From contig CM000430.1 in NCBI GenBank assembly GCA_000165345.1, positions 608,001-672,000 of the forward strand: a DNA stretch of 64,000 nucleotides. The letters run 5' to 3'. Of this stretch, positions 39,674 to 50,533 are shown in pieces. Numbering within the stretch: the stretch's first letter is position 1; every line of letters starts with the position of its first letter. The translations under genes and the position numbers were made by a program. The notes under the pieces are model-generated. The model worked only from the letters and a program-made list of their open reading frames with translations. It was not told the DNA's origin and searched no databases.

Positions 39674-40933
39674 TTATGCATTAGTATATAATATCATCAT
39701 ATTTAGGAAGATGATTAATAAGCTTTGTAAAATATGATAATTTGAGAATATTGGTAAAGAATTACTTTTTCTAAAATGTTTCTTGTAAAATCTTCTAAGT
39801 CCATGTTTAAGATCAAATGGTCCTCTATCAATAATTTCATAATCAATAATATCCAATCCATTTTCATTTTTGCATTCTTCTGGATTTAATAAACATTTAC
39901 AATCATTCGAATTAGGATTATATGTACAATGACAGCCAGGATTGAATGGATTAATATAACATCCACACAATTTTGAATATGGATTTAAATTACATGGGCA
40001 TCCAATACTATAAGGACTTGTTGAGCATCTTGGTATTATTGGAAGAGTAATATCATTAGTACAAGAAATAATAGTTTTACATTCATTAGTCATAGGATAT
40101 GTAATATTATATTGATTATTTTGTATATGATTATATATTGATTGATCATTATAACAGAAGCAATCAATTCCCATTGGATTAGTATAACATTTATATTCAT
40201 TATTATGTATACAATAAATTGGATTATTAATACACATGAATTTTATATTATTAGTAGTTTTTAAACTTGCTTGACAGAATGGATTATGTTCATTATTAAT
40301 GTTATCAATATTTCTTTTCCATAGAATAATTTTACCATATTTATTATTAAATTCATTTTCTATTAATGTAATTCTTTCAATATCATTATAAGTTGGATAA
40401 TCAATTAATATATTTTTGATTATTGATAAATCAAATATTATACCTTTTAATTTACCATTTGGTAAATTACATTTTTCATATCCACTAAATAATTTATTTG
40501 AATTTTCTGCATATATCTCATCAATTACAATATCTTGTATATGTATTCCTAATATATTGGAAATATGTTCTTTTAATGCCATTGTAATTTGTTTATAGTT
40601 ATCTTTTCTTTCTTCACAAAATGAAGATTCTAATAATGCTAATGTAATTGTTTGAATATGATTATGCTTTCCAATATCACTATCAGTATTTTCTTCTTTT
40701 TCCCGTCCTTTAGTAGTTGGTAATTTTGTATTATTATTGTTAATAGGAATTGAAGTGGAAGTTTTAGAAGTGAAGGATTTTCTAGTAGAGGTGGTGGTAG
40801 TAGAAGTTGTTGTTGTTGTTATAAGAATGGGTAATTTGAGTAATAATTTATCTTCTTTACTTGCAAAAAGTTGAGAATCATTACCATTACTCATTCCATC
40901 AAATTCTATATCATTATTTGGTATAGAGTTCAT
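39674..40933 (-). CDS. Cys-rich protein with a poly-Thr stalk and a novel C-x2-NP-x(3-5)-C repeat array, 419 aa, with a hydrophobic C-terminus
   Basis: ATG at 40933. The frame stays open a further 61 codons upstream, into the microsatellite, without any start codon. The protein has a TTTTTSTTTTST stalk and repeated motifs CINNPIYC, CYTNPMGIDC, CNLNPYSKLC, CYINPFNPGC, CTYNPNSNDC and CLLNPEEC. The C-terminal tail is hydrophobic (LQSLLIIFLNMMILY). Confidence 0.6.
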   Translation of the reverse strand: MNSIPNNDIEFDGMSNGNDSQLFASKEDKLLLKLPILITTTTTSTTTTSTRKSFTSKTSTSIPINNNNTKLPTTKGREKEENTDSDIGKHNHIQTITLALLESSFCEERKDNYKQITMALKEHISNILGIHIQDIVIDEIYAENSNKLFSGYEKCNLPNGKLKGIIFDLSIIKNILIDYPTYNDIERITLIENEFNNKYGKIILWKRNIDNINNEHNPFCQASLKTTNNIKFMCINNPIYCIHNNEYKCYTNPMGIDCFCYNDQSIYNHIQNNQYNITYPMTNECKTIISCTNDITLPIIPRCSTSPYSIGCPCNLNPYSKLCGCYINPFNPGCHCTYNPNSNDCKCLLNPEECKNENGLDIIDYEIIDRGPFDLKHGLRRFYKKHFRKSNSLPIFSNYHILQSLLIIFLNMMILYTNA

Positions 40934-41039
40934 TTTGAGTGTATTTGATAAATCATCAATATTGGGAGTATATGTTATGTTAACTGGAGGTATTTGTTGT
41001 TTTTGCTGTAGTAGTATTTGATTTTGTAGTATTAGTAGA

Positions 41040-41700
<661 letters not shown>

Positions 41701-41709
41701 AGTTTGGTT

Positions 41710-44043
<2,334 letters not shown>

Positions 44044-44735
44044 TTTCAAATTCTTCAATTTACATAAAAATATATATTTCTTCTTTTACTACTCTATTAT
44101 TTATCTTAATTTATATCATAAATCTTTAAAGTTAAGCTATTTTATACTATCTTAATTTATGATGAAGATTTTTTTTTAATATATATTTAAATAATTTCTA
44201 TTTCTCATATATTCAACTTTTTAATTTTTTTTTAATATAAATTTTTAATACTTTATTTTAAGTGACTGCCACTATTAAAAATACTACTACTATTATTACA
44301 TTTTTAGAGGTAATTTTTTTTATTTATTGTAATAAATATAATTTCATCATATTGTTTTATTTTTGCATGTATTATTTAAATTTACAAACTTTTGCCCGCT
44401 GACTTTATTTGCATGCATGCATTTTCGTCTCCAAATTTTTTTGTTCTTATTTAAAAAAAATGGTTTTGTGCATTAATGACTTTGTGGGTTGCGCGGCAAA
44501 TTTGAATATATTTTTTTCTATTGGTTGAATTAAAAAAAAGAATTTAATTAATAATAAATAATTTATTAATAGTTAAAGTGTGAGAAGTAGTGGAAGTATT
44601 ACTTTTATTATCTTTGATAATAATAAGAATATAAATTAAAAATATTGGTCTTTTTTTTTTTTTCTTTCCTATCCCTTTTACTTCCATTCAATTATACTCC
44701 TTACTCTTACCAGAAAAGCAAATAAAGAAGTTTAA

Positions 44736-46712
44736 ATGGACGATTTTAGCTTTTCCTTAAATAAATTAAGAAAAGAACAAGAAAAAGAAAGAAAAAAAGT
44801 ACTTGAAAAAAAACAAAGAGAAAAAAAATTTCAAGAAATCAACAAATTTAAAATTGATGATTACTTATCTAATATTGAAAGAACCTTTATTAAACAACAA
44901 AATAATATTTCAAATGAAGTGTATTTAGAACATAAAAACCCAAATAATCAAATTTTTCAAGAAGAAAATAAATACTCTTGGATACTTAAGCTAAATTTAA
45001 AAGATTATAATAATAATAATAATAATAATAATAGTAATAGTAATTCAAAATTTCCAAATAATGGTGAAACTGATCAAGTAATACTCCCAAATAACCTACT
45101 TAAAATATTAAGTAGTGATGAATCAATATATCCACTATATTTTAATATAAAATGTTTAAACCATCATATTTCTGAAAATATTAATCCAATTGAAACTCAT
45201 TGTGGAGTATTGGACTATTCCGAAGAACCAGGATACATTTCTTTACCGAATAAAGTTCTTAGATGTTTAAATATTAATCCAAATGATTCAGATTTTAAAA
45301 GTAATAAACCAATAATATGGATTCAAATTACATACAAAAAACTTTTAAAAGGATCTTTTGCTTCTTTTGAAATCTTAAATAATCAGGATATATTCAAAAT
45401 GCATGATATTGAATCTTTACTTGAAAGTTATTTAAGAAATCATTTTCTTACTTTGACAATTGGAGATACATTAATGATTAATCAACCAAATTATTCTAGT
45501 AATAACTATTGTATTTCTTTAATTAAAGTAAAACATTTAGAACCTGATAATTCGATTAGTTTAATCAATACTGATATTTCATTAGATATTACATATAAAG
45601 ATTCAAAGAATGAACAAACAATTCAAGATCATGCTGAAAATACCATTGAAAATTCAATCAGACTGATGAATATTGGTGATATTATTCATTTTGATGATAA
45701 ATTGGATGATTTAATTAATTTCAAATTAGATATACCATTTAATTTGAAAAAAGTCTTTCTAAATGAATCAGATACTGAAAATAATACAAAATTGAATATT
45801 TCAATCATTTCAAATCATTATTATGATATTTTTGTTTCATTTCCTCCCATTTTTGAAGCATCATCACATCTTCACATTTTCAGATCGTTTCCTGAAGACT
45901 ACTGCTACTACTCTAATTCTAACAACAATAATAAAAGCAAAAATACTAACCTGGTCATATCAAGTAACGAATTTATTAACTACTTAAAAACATTAGAAAG
46001 AAATATTTCTTGTAATCAAGACTCATCTTCATTGTTATTATTATTTCCCTCGATACTTTTTATTACCATCCAAAAACATAAAAATTCATCCTCAATTAAC
46101 AATGATATTATTTCAAATAATGAAAAATGCTCATTATCTTCTAGTATTCAAGTAAATATCCAATATTATAAAAAGGAAAGTACAATAGACGTAATCAATC
46201 AACCAATAGAAAACGAATTTTCAACTTGTATTAATTGTAAAAGAAAAATACCGAGTGATAATTTAGATCTACATTCTTTACAATGCGAAAAAATGTATAA
46301 AAGATGCAATCAATGCGATCTTATTTTAAAAAAGAGTGATTTTGAAAAACATACTCACTGTAATAAATGTATTAAATTTGGATTAAGCTTAGACCAAATT
46401 CAAATTCATGACAAATTATATCATCAATTTACTCAATGTAAACTTTGTAACCAAGATAATATTAAACCTATACAACTTACAATACATCAAACACAAGAAT
46501 GTCCAAAAAGGATAATACTTTGTAGGTATTGTAATAATTTTGTACAAGCCGGTACCGATGGACATTATGTTGATTATAAAGATAAGTATTATTATAACTT
46601 AACATCACACGAATCTTATTGTGGATCTAGAACAACAAATTGTAATATATGTAATAAAATTGTATTAATTAAAGAATTAAAATTTCATATTGATCTAGTA
46701 CATGCAAAATAA
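44736..46712 (+). CDS. UFD1-like N-domain protein fused to a C-terminal array of TRAF/C2HC-type zinc fingers, 658 aa
   Basis: ATG at 44736. Residues about 110-290 match the UFD1 double-psi barrel: THCGVLDYSEEPGYISLP (compare THCGVLEFxADEGxCYLP), LRNHFLTLTIGDTLMIN and ISLINTDISLDI. The C-terminal third has five or more Cys/His clusters (CINCKRK...HSLQC, CNQCD...HTHCNKC, CKLCNQ...ECPKR, CRYCN...). A poly-Asn insert is present. Confidence 0.65.
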   Translation: MDDFSFSLNKLRKEQEKERKKVLEKKQREKKFQEINKFKIDDYLSNIERTFIKQQNNISNEVYLEHKNPNNQIFQEENKYSWILKLNLKDYNNNNNNNNSNSNSKFPNNGETDQVILPNNLLKILSSDESIYPLYFNIKCLNHHISENINPIETHCGVLDYSEEPGYISLPNKVLRCLNINPNDSDFKSNKPIIWIQITYKKLLKGSFASFEILNNQDIFKMHDIESLLESYLRNHFLTLTIGDTLMINQPNYSSNNYCISLIKVKHLEPDNSISLINTDISLDITYKDSKNEQTIQDHAENTIENSIRLMNIGDIIHFDDKLDDLINFKLDIPFNLKKVFLNESDTENNTKLNISIISNHYYDIFVSFPPIFEASSHLHIFRSFPEDYCYYSNSNNNNKSKNTNLVISSNEFINYLKTLERNISCNQDSSSLLLLFPSILFITIQKHKNSSSINNDIISNNEKCSLSSSIQVNIQYYKKESTIDVINQPIENEFSTCINCKRKIPSDNLDLHSLQCEKMYKRCNQCDLILKKSDFEKHTHCNKCIKFGLSLDQIQIHDKLYHQFTQCKLCNQDNIKPIQLTIHQTQECPKRIILCRYCNNFVQAGTDGHYVDYKDKYYYNLTSHESYCGSRTTNCNICNKIVLIKELKFHIDLVHAK

Positions 46713-46725
46713 ATATTATTTTCTA

Positions 46726-47477
46726 TCAAAGTTCAATTCTCTCCTTCATAAACTTATTATTAAATGGAATCTGATCAGTATTCTCCAAATTTGAAATACT
46801 ATATTTTTGGGGGAAAACATCAAAATAACTCATTACATCCTCTTCTAGATCTAAATTATTCATCTGAATGGAATTTTTATTTTCATTACTATCAATTATA
46901 AAATTATTACCCATATTTGCTTTATTCTCATTATGTAAACTTTTTAATATACAATACGTACTCATCTGTTTAATCAAAATATCTTTTAGATATTCCTTTT
47001 CTATTTTTAAATTCTCAATTTTCTTCTTCATATGTAATTTATCTTTAGATTCGTTTTTTTCATTATATATTTCTTTAATCATACAAATTACCCTATCTAT
47101 TCCTTTAATGAATTCTCTACATAAAGACTGTTCTCTTAATAATTCCATCTTCAGTTCTTCTTCCTTTTCGTCACTTTTAACCCCTTTTTGATTATTTTCT
47201 AAAAAAAATATTACTTTATACTTTAATAATAAAAAAAATAAAGTCAATCAAATTTTAATTAGTCATTTTTTAATCATTAACTTTCCCATATTTACAAACG
47301 TACCTTTTTAATCTCTAACTCTAATTTCTTAACTTCCCATTTAACTTCACATAGCAATGTTTCAACCAACTCTTTAGTTGCTCCTGTTATATACCCATCC
47401 AGATCTTTCTCTTTAACTTTATTTATCTCAATATTACCTGAATTTCCTACTTTGTAAATTTCATAGTTTTTCTCCAT
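46726..47477 (-). CDS. Coiled-coil hypothetical protein; proposed join(46726..47220,47304..47477)
   Basis: Track ORFs 47292..47537 and 46726..47247 both begin at TTG pseudo-starts. The first ATG is at 47477 (MEKNYEIYKVGNSG...). The donor AAG|GTACGT (47303) and acceptor TTTATTTTTTTTATTATTAAAG| (47221) form an 83-nt phase-0 intron. The product is Lys/Glu-rich with heptad repeats. Confidence 0.4.
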
Positions 47478-48496
47478 ATTTACTTTTTCAATTCTATTAT
47501 ACAAACTAATATTAAGATCTCGTTGATTTCTTCTCAACTACTGATTTACCTTTATTTCATATTAATAATACAAAAAATAACTGTTTTAAGTTACTAAAAA
47601 ATTTTTCACCTAATAAAAAAGGTAAAGATTAATGTATTTTTTTTAACTTAATGATTTTGAAAAAAAATGTTAAAATCTTCTGCTTAGAGCAATGAAATCA
47701 TTCAATATTCATCCACATTTGTCAAATTTTGTTTTGACAAGTCGGTATCTAAGATCCTTTTTCAAGAATTAAGATAAACTGACTTAATTAAGATTTATTG
47801 ACCAAACAAAGTTGAATATAGGCAAATGATTCTTACTTTAACTAGTATTTTTTGTTTCTTATTTATTAATTTCTATTTTCTGTATACTAGATGAATAATA
47901 AATATTGTTTCTGCCAATTTAAACGCTTTCCCGCCATTAATTAATTTTATTAAGATCATTACTTAGCATGCAAATCAATAATTTAAAAATAAAGCGCCAA
48001 ATTGCATGCAATTTCTATATTTTCTCCCCACATATTTTTTTGACAATTTTTTTTTGGAAAAAGAAGGAAAATAAAAAAGTTTTGTTTATTTTTAAAGGTT
48101 TTGAGTGTTCACAAAATGTTTAGCTGAAATTTCTTTTTAAATCTATAAATAGATTTTCTCTTATTATGTTCTATTTTAAAGTCGTCAGAGCGACTTTTTT
48201 TTTAATAAATATACATTATCATTTTTTCGAATTATTAAAAAAAAGATTAATTACTAATTAAGAATATAGAAATATATAGAGATACTTGATTAGTTAAACA
48301 AATGTATTAATATTATATTGTAGGTGTATTTCTATTGAAGTTCGTGTACTATATGCTTATTATTTGAAGTGGCGCCAATATGTGGGGCTAAAGTTTCTAA
48401 TTAATTTATTATTGTTAATCCAGAAAGTTTAATGTTTAATAAAGCTATTAACGGTAGAAAAAAAAAGGAAGAAAGAAAAGGCAAATGAATTAATAA

Positions 48497-50533
48497 TTAT
48501 TGCTGATATGACCATGGACCAAATTTATTTTTCTGAATTTCCTTGCATTTAATACTTAATTCCTTCAAGTGATCCTTGTTGATACTCTTAATCAGCAACG
48601 TTTTAGTAATATTCAAAAGTCTTTCCAATGAAGACTTTAGCTTGTCCTTAATTTCATATATGCTTTTGCTTGGAGTTTGTCTTTTTGTGATTCCAACTTC
48701 CTTATTGTTTTTATTACAAGAAGAACTATTATAAGTATTGTTAGTACTAGTAATATCAACAGAAGATTCCGGTATAGAGCTATGATCGCTTTGTTCAAAA
48801 ATACTTGTCATTATCCCATCATAGTATTCCTTATATCTTGTAATGATTTGATTGTTAACGTCAGTTTTTTTAGTAAAACCAGCTTCCAAACTTTGAGAAG
48901 GCTGGTTTTGCTCGGGAATCAAACGATTTTCGCAAGAATTCGACGGATCAATACATTTTAAATCATCATATTGAGAATCTGCGATTGTACTGTTTAAAGC
49001 AGGCTTCTCTTCATCCTGTTCTTCCTTTTCCTTTACTTCGTCATTGTCTAAAAAATACTCGAAGCTTTGCATATTCAAATCAGTAGAATTTATAGGTATA
49101 CTATCTCTAATCTTGTGATTATCATCTTTGAAAAATTCAATGCAATCATAAGAGGGATTGGATGAATATTTGAGCTCCATTTCTTGGATATAATCAACAT
49201 CCAGATCTATTTCAAACTGAGATTCTGTGATAAGTTCACTCCATACATGAGGTAAAGAAATTATATTAGGATCATTTGTTAGATTACCATGATTTACAAC
49301 ATTATAATCACCAGAATCATTTATTAAATCTGAATCAGGAAATCCAAAGTCATTACTTTTGTGGTTAATATTATTATTGTTAGTATTATTAGAAAACAAT
49401 GTATTAAAGTTATTAAAGAATCGAATTACATTACTTTTTCCTAGTTCATCTTTGATATTCAAAAATACATTTCCAAAGATTCCATTCTTAGTTGTTGGAG
49501 TTGAGTATTTGATTGCATTCATAATATCTGCAATATCATTTGAATAAAGTATATTGGATTCAATTCTTTGAAGCCTATATAATATAAGTTTATATAATGG
49601 AACCCAACCTTGCTGAAAGAAATCATCCCAAAATTTTCCTATGATATTTAAAGGTATACTATATGAGAAAAGAGTTAGAAACCAATCAGTAGCTAACATA
49701 TCTATAGTGCCTCCCTGTCTAATAATATGATCCCATATAATATGTAATTCTTTTTCCATTAATTGATTCAAAATTAAACATTTGACTCTTAATCCCGGCA
49801 ATCCTGATACAAACATTTCTCTCATGCCGTAATTAAACATTAAAGAAACCAATAATTCAAATGCCTGTTCTTCACTACTTGAATGCCAAAGTATACATCC
49901 AACTAAAAAATTCATACCTTGTACATATCCAACATCTATATCCATCAATGAATATATTAACAAAATCTTACTCAAGTAACTTTTACCTTCAAATTTGAAA
50001 TAAGAAATTGATGGATACGTCCTACATACATCCATATATATACTATTCATTACTCTATTACTAAATATTTTATTTATTACACCATTTTCTGTCAAATCTA
50101 TTTCAATTATATCGCTTCCCTCCATTCTTACAATGTACTCGACTATATTTATTAATTCTCTATAAATGGTTGTCAATCCTAATTCATTAGATTTCGAAAC
50201 CTCTAACCAATTCTGCATTCTCACACATCTTCCTTGATTGTCTTTATCACAATCACAATGAGGCCCTACTTTATCAAGCTTTAGAAATCGAACAAAACTA
50301 AGTCTTTTTCTATCATTTGTTTTTTTTCTCAAATCCGAATTTAGGCATCCTGGTTCTTTCGTATTCGTCTCCTCTTGCTTCTTCTCAAATCCTGATTCTG
50401 ATTCAGAATCAGATTCTACTTCATTCTTTGATGGCTGCATTTCTTCTACATTATTCAATGAGGGAACAAAATAATTATATGCTTTTTTCACTGCTAGCAA
50501 GGTCACAATATTTGTTTCCTCTTTCAATTCCAT
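48497..50533 (-). CDS. TBC-domain Rab GTPase-activating protein, 678 aa
   Basis: ATG at 50533. The TBC arginine-finger motif IYMDVCRTYP and glutamine-finger motif YVQGMNF are present. The C-terminal region is low in complexity and rich in Asn, Ser and Asp. Confidence 0.8.
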   Translation of the reverse strand: MELKEETNIVTLLAVKKAYNYFVPSLNNVEEMQPSKNEVESDSESESGFEKKQEETNTKEPGCLNSDLRKKTNDRKRLSFVRFLKLDKVGPHCDCDKDNQGRCVRMQNWLEVSKSNELGLTTIYRELINIVEYIVRMEGSDIIEIDLTENGVINKIFSNRVMNSIYMDVCRTYPSISYFKFEGKSYLSKILLIYSLMDIDVGYVQGMNFLVGCILWHSSSEEQAFELLVSLMFNYGMREMFVSGLPGLRVKCLILNQLMEKELHIIWDHIIRQGGTIDMLATDWFLTLFSYSIPLNIIGKFWDDFFQQGWVPLYKLILYRLQRIESNILYSNDIADIMNAIKYSTPTTKNGIFGNVFLNIKDELGKSNVIRFFNNFNTLFSNNTNNNNINHKSNDFGFPDSDLINDSGDYNVVNHGNLTNDPNIISLPHVWSELITESQFEIDLDVDYIQEMELKYSSNPSYDCIEFFKDDNHKIRDSIPINSTDLNMQSFEYFLDNDEVKEKEEQDEEKPALNSTIADSQYDDLKCIDPSNSCENRLIPEQNQPSQSLEAGFTKKTDVNNQIITRYKEYYDGIMTSIFEQSDHSSIPESSVDITSTNNTYNSSSCNKNNKEVGITKRQTPSKSIYEIKDKLKSSLERLLNITKTLLIKSINKDHLKELSIKCKEIQKNKFGPWSYQQ

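Follow-up and report, generated by a model that had tools for sequence, protein, structure and literature searches.

We analysed a window of 64,000 nucleotides (nt) from the forward strand of contig CM000430.1 (NCBI GenBank assembly GCA_000165345.1, positions 608,001 to 672,000), which is probably chromosome 2; all coordinates below count from the first letter of this window. The gene of interest is a single-exon open reading frame (ORF) of 658 amino acids (aa) that joins a UFD1-like domain to an array of zinc fingers. It is identical to the Cryptosporidium parvum protein EAK88700.1/QOY42915.1, which GenBank names 'ubiquitin fusion degradation (UFD1) family protein, double Psi beta barrel fold'. 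The copies of C. hominis are named variously 'UFD1', 'XIAP-associated factor 1' or 'UBE3A N-terminal zinc-binding domain-containing protein'. The local DNA is AT-rich, with 21-39% GC across the window and about 22% GC at this gene. An uninterrupted frame of 658 codons in DNA of this composition, colinear over its full length in at least ten Cryptosporidium species, indicates that this is no chance ORF. The colinear orthologs include those of C. tyzzeri, C. hominis, C. meleagridis, chipmunk genotype I, C. ubiquitum, C. canis, C. xiaoi/bovis and C. muris/andersoni/serpentis. A structural model was built with AlphaFold2 (AF2) from a 39-sequence alignment, with a mean predicted local distance difference test (pLDDT) score of 72.5. 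The features of the gene and its product are the following:

44736..46712, + strand: coding sequence of the UFD1-like zinc-finger protein (single exon, 658 aa, ATG start, TAA stop at 46710..46712)
44736..44927, + strand: N-terminal Lys/Glu-rich helical region (aa 1-64; AF2 helices at 2-35 and 46-64)
45009..45044, + strand: poly-Asn/Ser tract (aa 92-103), N-terminal to UT3; pLDDT below 50 at aa 94-102
45054..45593, + strand: UT3 domain, comprising UFD1_N1 (aa 107-185, double-psi barrel) and UFD1_N2 (aa 205-286)
45657..46172, + strand: middle beta-sandwich domain (aa 308-479; conserved motif DIFVSFPPIFEASSHLHIFRSF)
46215..46709, + strand: six-finger XAF1/TRAFD1-type array (aa 494-658)
Finger 1: C498/C501/H513/C517, C2HC
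Finger 2: C524/C527/H539/H541, C2H2-like
Finger 3: C542/C545/H558/H563, C2H2
Finger 4: C568/C571/H584/C589, C2HC
Finger 5: C596/C599/H625/C629, C2HC, with a 25-residue loop
Finger 6: C636/C639/H651/H656, C2H2

Both halves of the UT3 domain scored above their Pfam cut-offs (UFD1_N1, 42.5 bits against a cut-off of 29, aa 107-185; UFD1_N2, 42.6 bits against 37, aa 205-286). A phmmer search of the PDB matched aa 113-302 to yeast and human Ufd1 (1zc1, 8dar and 2yuj; E 3e-7 to 3e-6). Foldseek searches with the AF2 model placed Ufd1 UT3 structures at the top (2yuj, E 6e-11, target template-modelling score, TMt, 0.76; 1zc1, TMt 0.70), and the N-domains of Cdc48, p97, PEX1 and VAT ranked below them.

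Between UT3 and the fingers, the AF2 model shows a beta-sandwich of about 170 residues, whose fold resembles those of pre-peptidase-C-terminal and collagen-binding domains. A search of NCBIfam found nothing for it. In fungal relatives the same position is filled by the Pfam domain DUF7590, and MAFFT pairs the strands of the two one by one (NIGD/KIG, FKLDIP/YVDYELP, LNISI/LEIEL, DIFVSF/DLFVSP, HLHIFRSF/EHVFGDF, LVISS/IVISPTN, ILFITI/LLISVH and IQVNIQY/YTLRAKV). We regard the middle domain as a putative diverged DUF7590, alike in position and strand pattern; the resemblance is weak at the sequence level and does not amount to proof.

Conservation in the family to which this protein belongs peaks in the finger array, where all 24 Cys/His ligand positions are conserved at 89-100% in 142 relatives from outside Cryptosporidium. 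The Pfam family TRAFD1-XIAF1_ZnF (PF21366) matched aa 621-651 with 41.5 bits (cut-off 27). Znf_XAF1_N (PF23580) reached only 13.8 bits in the C. parvum protein but exceeded its cut-off in 25 of 38 relatives, where it lies at finger 1. The zf-TRAF structure of human TRAFD1 (2d9k) matched aa 584-653 (phmmer, E 2e-7).

An earlier note, made from the letters of this DNA alone, had described a UFD1 N-domain and a multi-zinc-finger array in one ORF with no stop or intron between them. The N-domain is confirmed by the Pfam hidden Markov models (HMMs) for both subdomains and by the PDB and Foldseek matches, and the joint occurrence of the two parts holds, both being colinear in all orthologs. The zinc-finger clusters of TRAF/C2HC spacing, of which the note had counted at least five, are real; they number six, are of the XAF1/TRAFD1 type and mix C2HC with C2H2 ligands. 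They do not fill some 200 residues directly after the N-domain, as had been proposed, but about 165 (aa 494-658), and the beta-sandwich, which the note had missed, stands in between. The poly-Asn insert placed after the N-domain is there only as a short second run, NSNNNN (aa 394-399), in a low-confidence loop of the beta-sandwich; the main tract at aa 92-103 precedes UT3, and the fingers (aa 494-658) contain no poly-Asn run. In the ortholog alignment, the length of the poly-Asn/Ser tract differs among C. parvum, C. tyzzeri and C. hominis. All Cryptosporidium orthologs keep the N-terminus MDDFxxSL, and a local HMM of the N-terminal region, run against the family proteins, matched those of Cryptosporidium only.

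A widespread family of Ufd1-like zinc-finger proteins

Two of three word-indexed homolog searches were dominated by low-complexity words and returned Cryptosporidium proteins only; a profile trimmed to UT3 and fingers reached wider relatives. An exhaustive HMMER search with the Cryptosporidium profile against 1.84 billion representatives gave 1047 matches at E<=1e-3, 381 of them at E<=1e-10. Region sub-profiles detected UT3 and the finger array together in 128 of 163 collected proteins. When 38 diverse members were scanned with Pfam, UFD1_N2 and TRAFD1-XIAF1_ZnF turned up in every one, UFD1_N1 in 36, Znf_XAF1_N in 25, AZUL in 18 and DUF7590 in five. The Pfam set of the fungal members is PF03152, PF24842, PF24503 and PF23580, to which PF21366 and PF16558 may be added.

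Among fungi, members were found in Pezizomycotina (Cordyceps, Fusarium, Aspergillus, Colletotrichum and others), Mortierellomycota (Linnemannia, Podila), Kickxellomycotina (Smittium, Furculomyces, Coemansia) and the Saccharomycotina yeast Sugiyamaella. The alga Chlorokybus provided the only member confirmed among streptophytes; Arabidopsis At4g15420 ('PRLI-interacting factor K') is given in the literature as a UFD1 homolog (PMC12940902). Further members came from Ancoracysta, from the apicomplexan Cardiosporidium and from the EukProt entry 'Clim_evm', which we read as the holozoan Corallochytrium. The family is thus old and broad, spanning Fungi, Holozoa, Streptophyta, Ancoracysta and Apicomplexa, rather than an invention of Cryptosporidium. 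The suggestion of an unusual or lineage-specific architecture does not hold, as the 128 proteins that combine UT3 with the array come from fungi, an alga and protists. This domain combination is already present in precomputed Pfam annotations, so that the family is catalogued and functionally uncharacterised.

Based on its profile matches and domain order, the C. parvum protein is best placed as a member of a Ufd1 paralog family with the arrangement UT3, DUF7590, finger array and, in most lineages, a C-terminal AZUL domain. AZUL (PF16558) was not found in the C. parvum protein, whose ORF ends two residues after H656. It is absent from all aligned Cryptosporidium proteins, including that of C. 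muris, and kept in Cardiosporidium; Cryptosporidium has lost it. AZUL is a variable feature of the family (18/38), and its absence is therefore compatible with membership. Together with the loss of AZUL, the charged N-terminal helix and the poly-Asn inserts are the traits specific to Cryptosporidium.

The array is also found in other surroundings. Several relatives (P0044, P0071, P0120, P0128, P0145, P0152 and P0163) have the six fingers without UT3, joined to AZUL, UBZ-like or RanBP2-NZF-like fingers, and over all the relatives, whether or not they have UT3, the array is combined with AZUL, UBA_7, UBZ-like and NZF-like modules. These varied unions suggest that the finger array is a mobile module of the ubiquitin system, and the metazoan proteins XAF1 and TRAFD1 may be derivatives devoid of UT3. 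As a separate observation, in the relative P0036 the last finger unit is repeated in tandem, with eight copies.

Probable ubiquitin binding and the relation to Cdc48

In yeast Ufd1, the UT3 residues L55, V84, L85, F87 and I188 touch the Ile44/Leu8 patch of the proximal ubiquitin, according to cryo-electron microscopy and AlphaFold3 (AF3) models, and mutating them cripples unfolding (bioRxiv 10.64898/2026.02.26.708172). The HMMER alignment to 1zc1_A gives L122, V158, L159, Y161 and I277 as the candidate ubiquitin-contact residues of the C. parvum protein. Across 32 family members from outside Cryptosporidium, the columns of L55, V84, F87 and I188 hold L in 30, V in 31, F in all 32 and I, V or L in all 32, and only that of L85 varies; the residue numbering behind these counts is the same as in the HMMER alignment to 1zc1_A. 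The maintenance of UT3 and its contact residues across supergroups argues for selection on the binding surface of this domain. That UT3 still binds ubiquitin, as these columns suggest, is the best-supported of the functional roles that we infer.

True Ufd1 continues from UT3 into a flexible UT6 tail with SHP boxes (FxGxGxxh), which serve the N-domain of Cdc48, and an Npl4-binding motif. A regular-expression scan of the 658 residues detected no SHP box, strict or loose, and not one GxG; a motif scan of the same residues found neither VIM nor VBM. Against the full-length Ufd1 chains 8dar_H and 9yrc_H, the alignments go no further than the UT3 boundary, and none reaches UT6 or the Npl4-binding segment, whose motif is short and poorly defined. 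A separate gene, cgd4_1200, has been reported as the C. parvum Ufd1 ortholog, along with orthologs of Npl4 and Cdc48 (Ponts et al., PMC2408969, text and Table S2). Because SHP, VIM and VBM motifs are absent, the alignments stop at UT3 and a separate ortholog is reported, we conclude that the C. parvum protein is most probably a paralog of Ufd1 and not a cofactor of Cdc48-Npl4. For the same reasons, the proposal in the earlier note of a divergent adaptor of Cdc48 and endoplasmic-reticulum-associated degradation (ERAD) is not supported. The GenBank records that call this gene 'Ufd1' over-annotate it, and we caution against the use of this name.

With moderate confidence, we propose that the gene encodes a ubiquitin-binding adaptor from an ancient family of Ufd1 paralogs, which would act without the canonical engagement of Cdc48 through SHP boxes or of Npl4. 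As in Ufd1, the target of UT3 would be the Ile44/Leu8 patch of ubiquitin, or chains linked through K48. The beta-sandwich and the finger array would form a platform for protein-protein contacts, possibly a second platform for ubiquitin, and this platform would bring the ubiquitylated client held by UT3 to a partner; the canonical SHP route to Cdc48 and the canonical pairing with Npl4 would remain unused. The fusion of the array elsewhere to AZUL, UBA, UBZ-like and NZF-like modules is what points to an adaptor of the ubiquitin system. In this family UT3 is kept, and the place of the flexible UT6 tail is taken by a beta-sandwich, probably of the DUF7590 type, and a rigid array of six fingers; the Cryptosporidium branch has lost AZUL and gained the charged N-terminal helix.

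Several observations weigh against this proposal. The absence of a linear SHP box leaves room for binding to Cdc48 through another surface, such as the zinc fingers, as in Npl4. The one source for a separate canonical Ufd1 of C. parvum is Table S2 of PMC2408969, whose Ufd1 row has internal oddities: it gives YER048W for yeast UFD1, and it pairs cgd4_1200 with C. hominis Chro.10043, on a different chromosome. This row may contain errors. The middle domain of the Cryptosporidium proteins has no Pfam match to PF24503 (DUF7590), and its hhalign comparison with fungal DUF7590 segments gave E 0.034 at low probability, which is not significant. Among the contact columns, that equivalent to yeast L85 is variable (R in 14 and L in 11 of the 32 members). 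The link of AZUL to the proteasome is not transferable to Cryptosporidium, since the domain is absent there. Finally, our literature searches found no experiment or interaction data for any member of the family, and no functional study of the family, of this gene or of cgd4_1200.

We also considered that Cryptosporidium may use this protein as its functional Ufd1, or as a second adaptor for ERAD and Cdc48, in which the fingers recruit Cdc48 in place of SHP boxes or the fingers of Npl4. Such a role would agree with a UT3 that is clearly of the Ufd1 type and retains conserved ubiquitin-contact residues, and there is a precedent in the zinc fingers of Npl4, which anchor on the D1 ring of Cdc48 (PMC7403338); moreover, the absence of short motifs is weak negative evidence. 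It is hard to reconcile with a protein in which nothing aligns to UT6 and in which the Pfam scan detected no UBX or PUB feature, in addition to the missing SHP, VIM and VBM motifs. The fingers are of the XAF1/TRAFD1 type and not of the Npl4 type, the family coexists with normal Ufd1 and Npl4 in fungi and plant-lineage algae, and C. parvum itself is reported to have separate Ufd1 and Npl4 genes (PMC2408969). On balance we think this role unlikely.

A further explanation starts from the fingers and takes the protein for a signalling scaffold akin to XAF1 and TRAFD1, with the array as the core that holds a specific partner (for example an IAP/TRAF-like or RING protein) and UT3 as an accessory or degenerate part that plays no role with ubiquitin. 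TRAFD1 and XAF1 are adaptors between proteins, the array shows the strongest and most invariant conservation, and it exists without UT3 in other proteins. A degenerate UT3 fits poorly with contact residues that are kept across supergroups, and the recurrent partners of the array, AZUL, UBA and UBZ/NZF-like modules, belong to the ubiquitin system. We consider such a scaffold quite unlikely.

Plastid-bearing apicomplexans possess a second, plastid-targeted Ufd1 (PMC5487736, PMC12412216), and the gene might be a relic of this ERAD-like import system of the plastid (SELMA/apicoplast), a former Ufd1-AP kept after the loss of the plastid. We rejected this as very improbable: the family is present in fungi, Corallochytrium and a streptophyte alga, lineages in which a red complex plastid never existed; the protein begins with a charged helix (MDDFSFSLNKLRKEQEKERKK...), and neither its sequence nor the AF2 model shows a hydrophobic signal peptide; Cryptosporidium has no SELMA Derlins (PMC12412216); and the closest relatives in profile searches are the zinc-finger paralogs of fungi, algae and protists. 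Finally, the chance that a gene-model artefact has read adjacent UFD1-like and zinc-finger genes as one is negligible, as the reading frame runs unbroken through 658 codons in DNA of about 22% GC and the parts are colinear in at least ten Cryptosporidium species, as well as in over 100 proteins from unrelated eukaryotes.

If the ubiquitin-binding adaptor that we favour is real, it represents a second and widely conserved use of the ubiquitin-reading domain of Ufd1, uncoupled from the Cdc48-Npl4 unfoldase, which would have been overlooked because the proteins that our searches recovered belong to lineages other than the common model animals and budding yeast. In Cryptosporidium, whose ubiquitin-proteasome toolkit is much reduced, it would be an additional component, as yet uncharacterised. 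A bolder extension, which we put forward as speculation and hold to be doubtful, is that the family is a hitherto unrecognised ubiquitin receptor as old as the last eukaryotic common ancestor (LECA) and independent of Cdc48 and Npl4. Its UT3 would read K48 chains, its clients would be handed directly to the proteasome, in most lineages through AZUL and Rpn10 (in Cryptosporidium, through some other contact), and the metazoan XAF1 and TRAFD1 would descend from the same ancestral finger array and lack UT3.

Gene order and the convergent neighbour

The order of a mucin-like gene, the UFD1-like gene, a small gene, a RabGAP-TBC gene and a replication factor C (RFC) gene is kept in C. muris and C. 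ubiquitum, with the small gene unannotated in the latter. The small gene converges on the UFD1-like gene, and the features around their 3' ends are the following:

46708..46713, + strand: AATAAA hexamer, spanning the stop of the UFD1-like gene
46713..46725, no strand: spacer between the convergent stops (13 nt, ATATTATTTTCTA)
46728..46726, - strand: TGA stop of the neighbour
46726..47477, - strand: convergent small coiled-coil protein gene (two exons, 47477..47304 and 47220..46726; about 222 aa)
47303..47221, - strand: intron of the neighbour (83 nt, GT..AG)
L001 6176..6918 and L002 6010..6760: equivalent loci of the neighbour in relatives

The coiled-coil protein of the neighbour had no match in Pfam. 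Its gene is real, given a frame open for 173 codons in DNA of about 24% GC, a two-exon structure with GT..AG borders and a syntenic gene of 217 aa in C. muris. A tblastn search with the neighbour against the C. muris locus aligned 20 aa only (E 0.006), and in C. ubiquitum the equivalent interval of 750 nt has no annotated neighbour gene and gave no tblastn match. The small coiled-coil protein evolves very fast.

The gap of 13 nt that the earlier note had reported between the stops at 46712 and 46726 is correct, and it is the smallest of the convergent gaps in the window (13, 52, 120, 246, 349, 425 and 962 nt, among ORFs of at least 150 aa). As a conserved feature the gap was rejected, since the same two genes lie 192 nt apart in C. 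muris. The mean stop-to-start intergenic distance of C. parvum is 504 bp, and its transcripts overlap and merge (PMC7840661). It is very probable that the 3' untranslated regions (UTRs) of the two genes overlap, a reasonable expectation that fits these published data. If the AATAAA hexamer at 46708..46713 is used, cleavage would occur inside the coding region of the neighbour. The spacing seems to follow from genome compaction and not to serve as a regulatory device; it is a clean local example of compaction and, taken alone, not unusual.

On the other side of the UFD1-like gene, an ORF of 782 aa (41710..44058, - strand) contains greatly extended runs of Thr and of Asn. It gave no match in Pfam and has the look of a mucin-type glycoprotein gene of Cryptosporidium. 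Its 3' end, together with the next gene at 39674..40933, is overlapped by a strong spike in GC skew (0.537, bin 40001-42000). In C. muris, the ortholog of the UFD1-like gene is preceded by a syntenic gene of 824 aa, also with no Pfam match. Beyond the small neighbour lies the RabGAP-TBC gene (48497..50533, - strand; PF00566, E 2e-40), followed in C. muris and C. ubiquitum by the gene for the replication factor C subunit. Promoter-like motifs, TGCATGCATGCA and an E2F-like GCGCGGCAAA, precede the UFD1-like gene by 240-330 nt, at 44410..44421 and 44491..44500. Further such motifs, GGCGGGAAA and TTGGCGC(C), occur at about 47935-48010 and near 48370, in the region that is upstream for the neighbour and downstream for the RabGAP gene. 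Both sets of motifs (near 44410-44500 and 47935-48370) resemble known cis-elements of apicomplexans.

Comparison with known proteins

The C. parvum protein shares with Ufd1 (UFD1/UFD1L) the UT3 domain, made of a double-psi barrel and an alpha/beta roll, and the hydrophobic residues that in Ufd1 contact the proximal ubiquitin. It differs from Ufd1 in what follows UT3, namely a beta-sandwich and six zinc fingers, with neither UT6 tail nor SHP box. The zinc-finger family coexists with canonical Ufd1 in other lineages.

With TRAFD1 (FLN29) and XAF1 it has the finger types in common. UT3 and the beta-sandwich, which stand N-terminal to its fingers, are both absent from TRAFD1 and XAF1, and its finger 5 has an insertion of 14 residues relative to TRAFD1. 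The protein thus shares a finger module with TRAFD1 and XAF1 and does not belong to their family, and the interferon-related roles of these two proteins are, to our knowledge, specific to metazoans.

E6AP/UBE3A is related through AZUL, which it shares with the 18 of 38 family members, all from outside Cryptosporidium, that have this domain. AZUL docks E6AP on the RAZUL of proteasomal Rpn10 (PMC7064531), and its presence in those members points to a context in the proteasome and ubiquitin system. The C. parvum protein differs from E6AP in having no AZUL.

The closest likeness is to the uncharacterised 'UFD1-domain-containing proteins' of fungi, algae and protists, such as those of Cordyceps javanica (P0056), Linnemannia zychae (P0028) and Cardiosporidium cionae (P0018). 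These share with the C. parvum protein the UT3 domain, a beta-rich middle and six fingers, with identical spacing of the finger ligands and reciprocal high-scoring profile matches. Compared with them, the Cryptosporidium proteins have no AZUL, a middle domain too diverged for the DUF7590 HMM, and an added N-terminal helix and poly-Asn.

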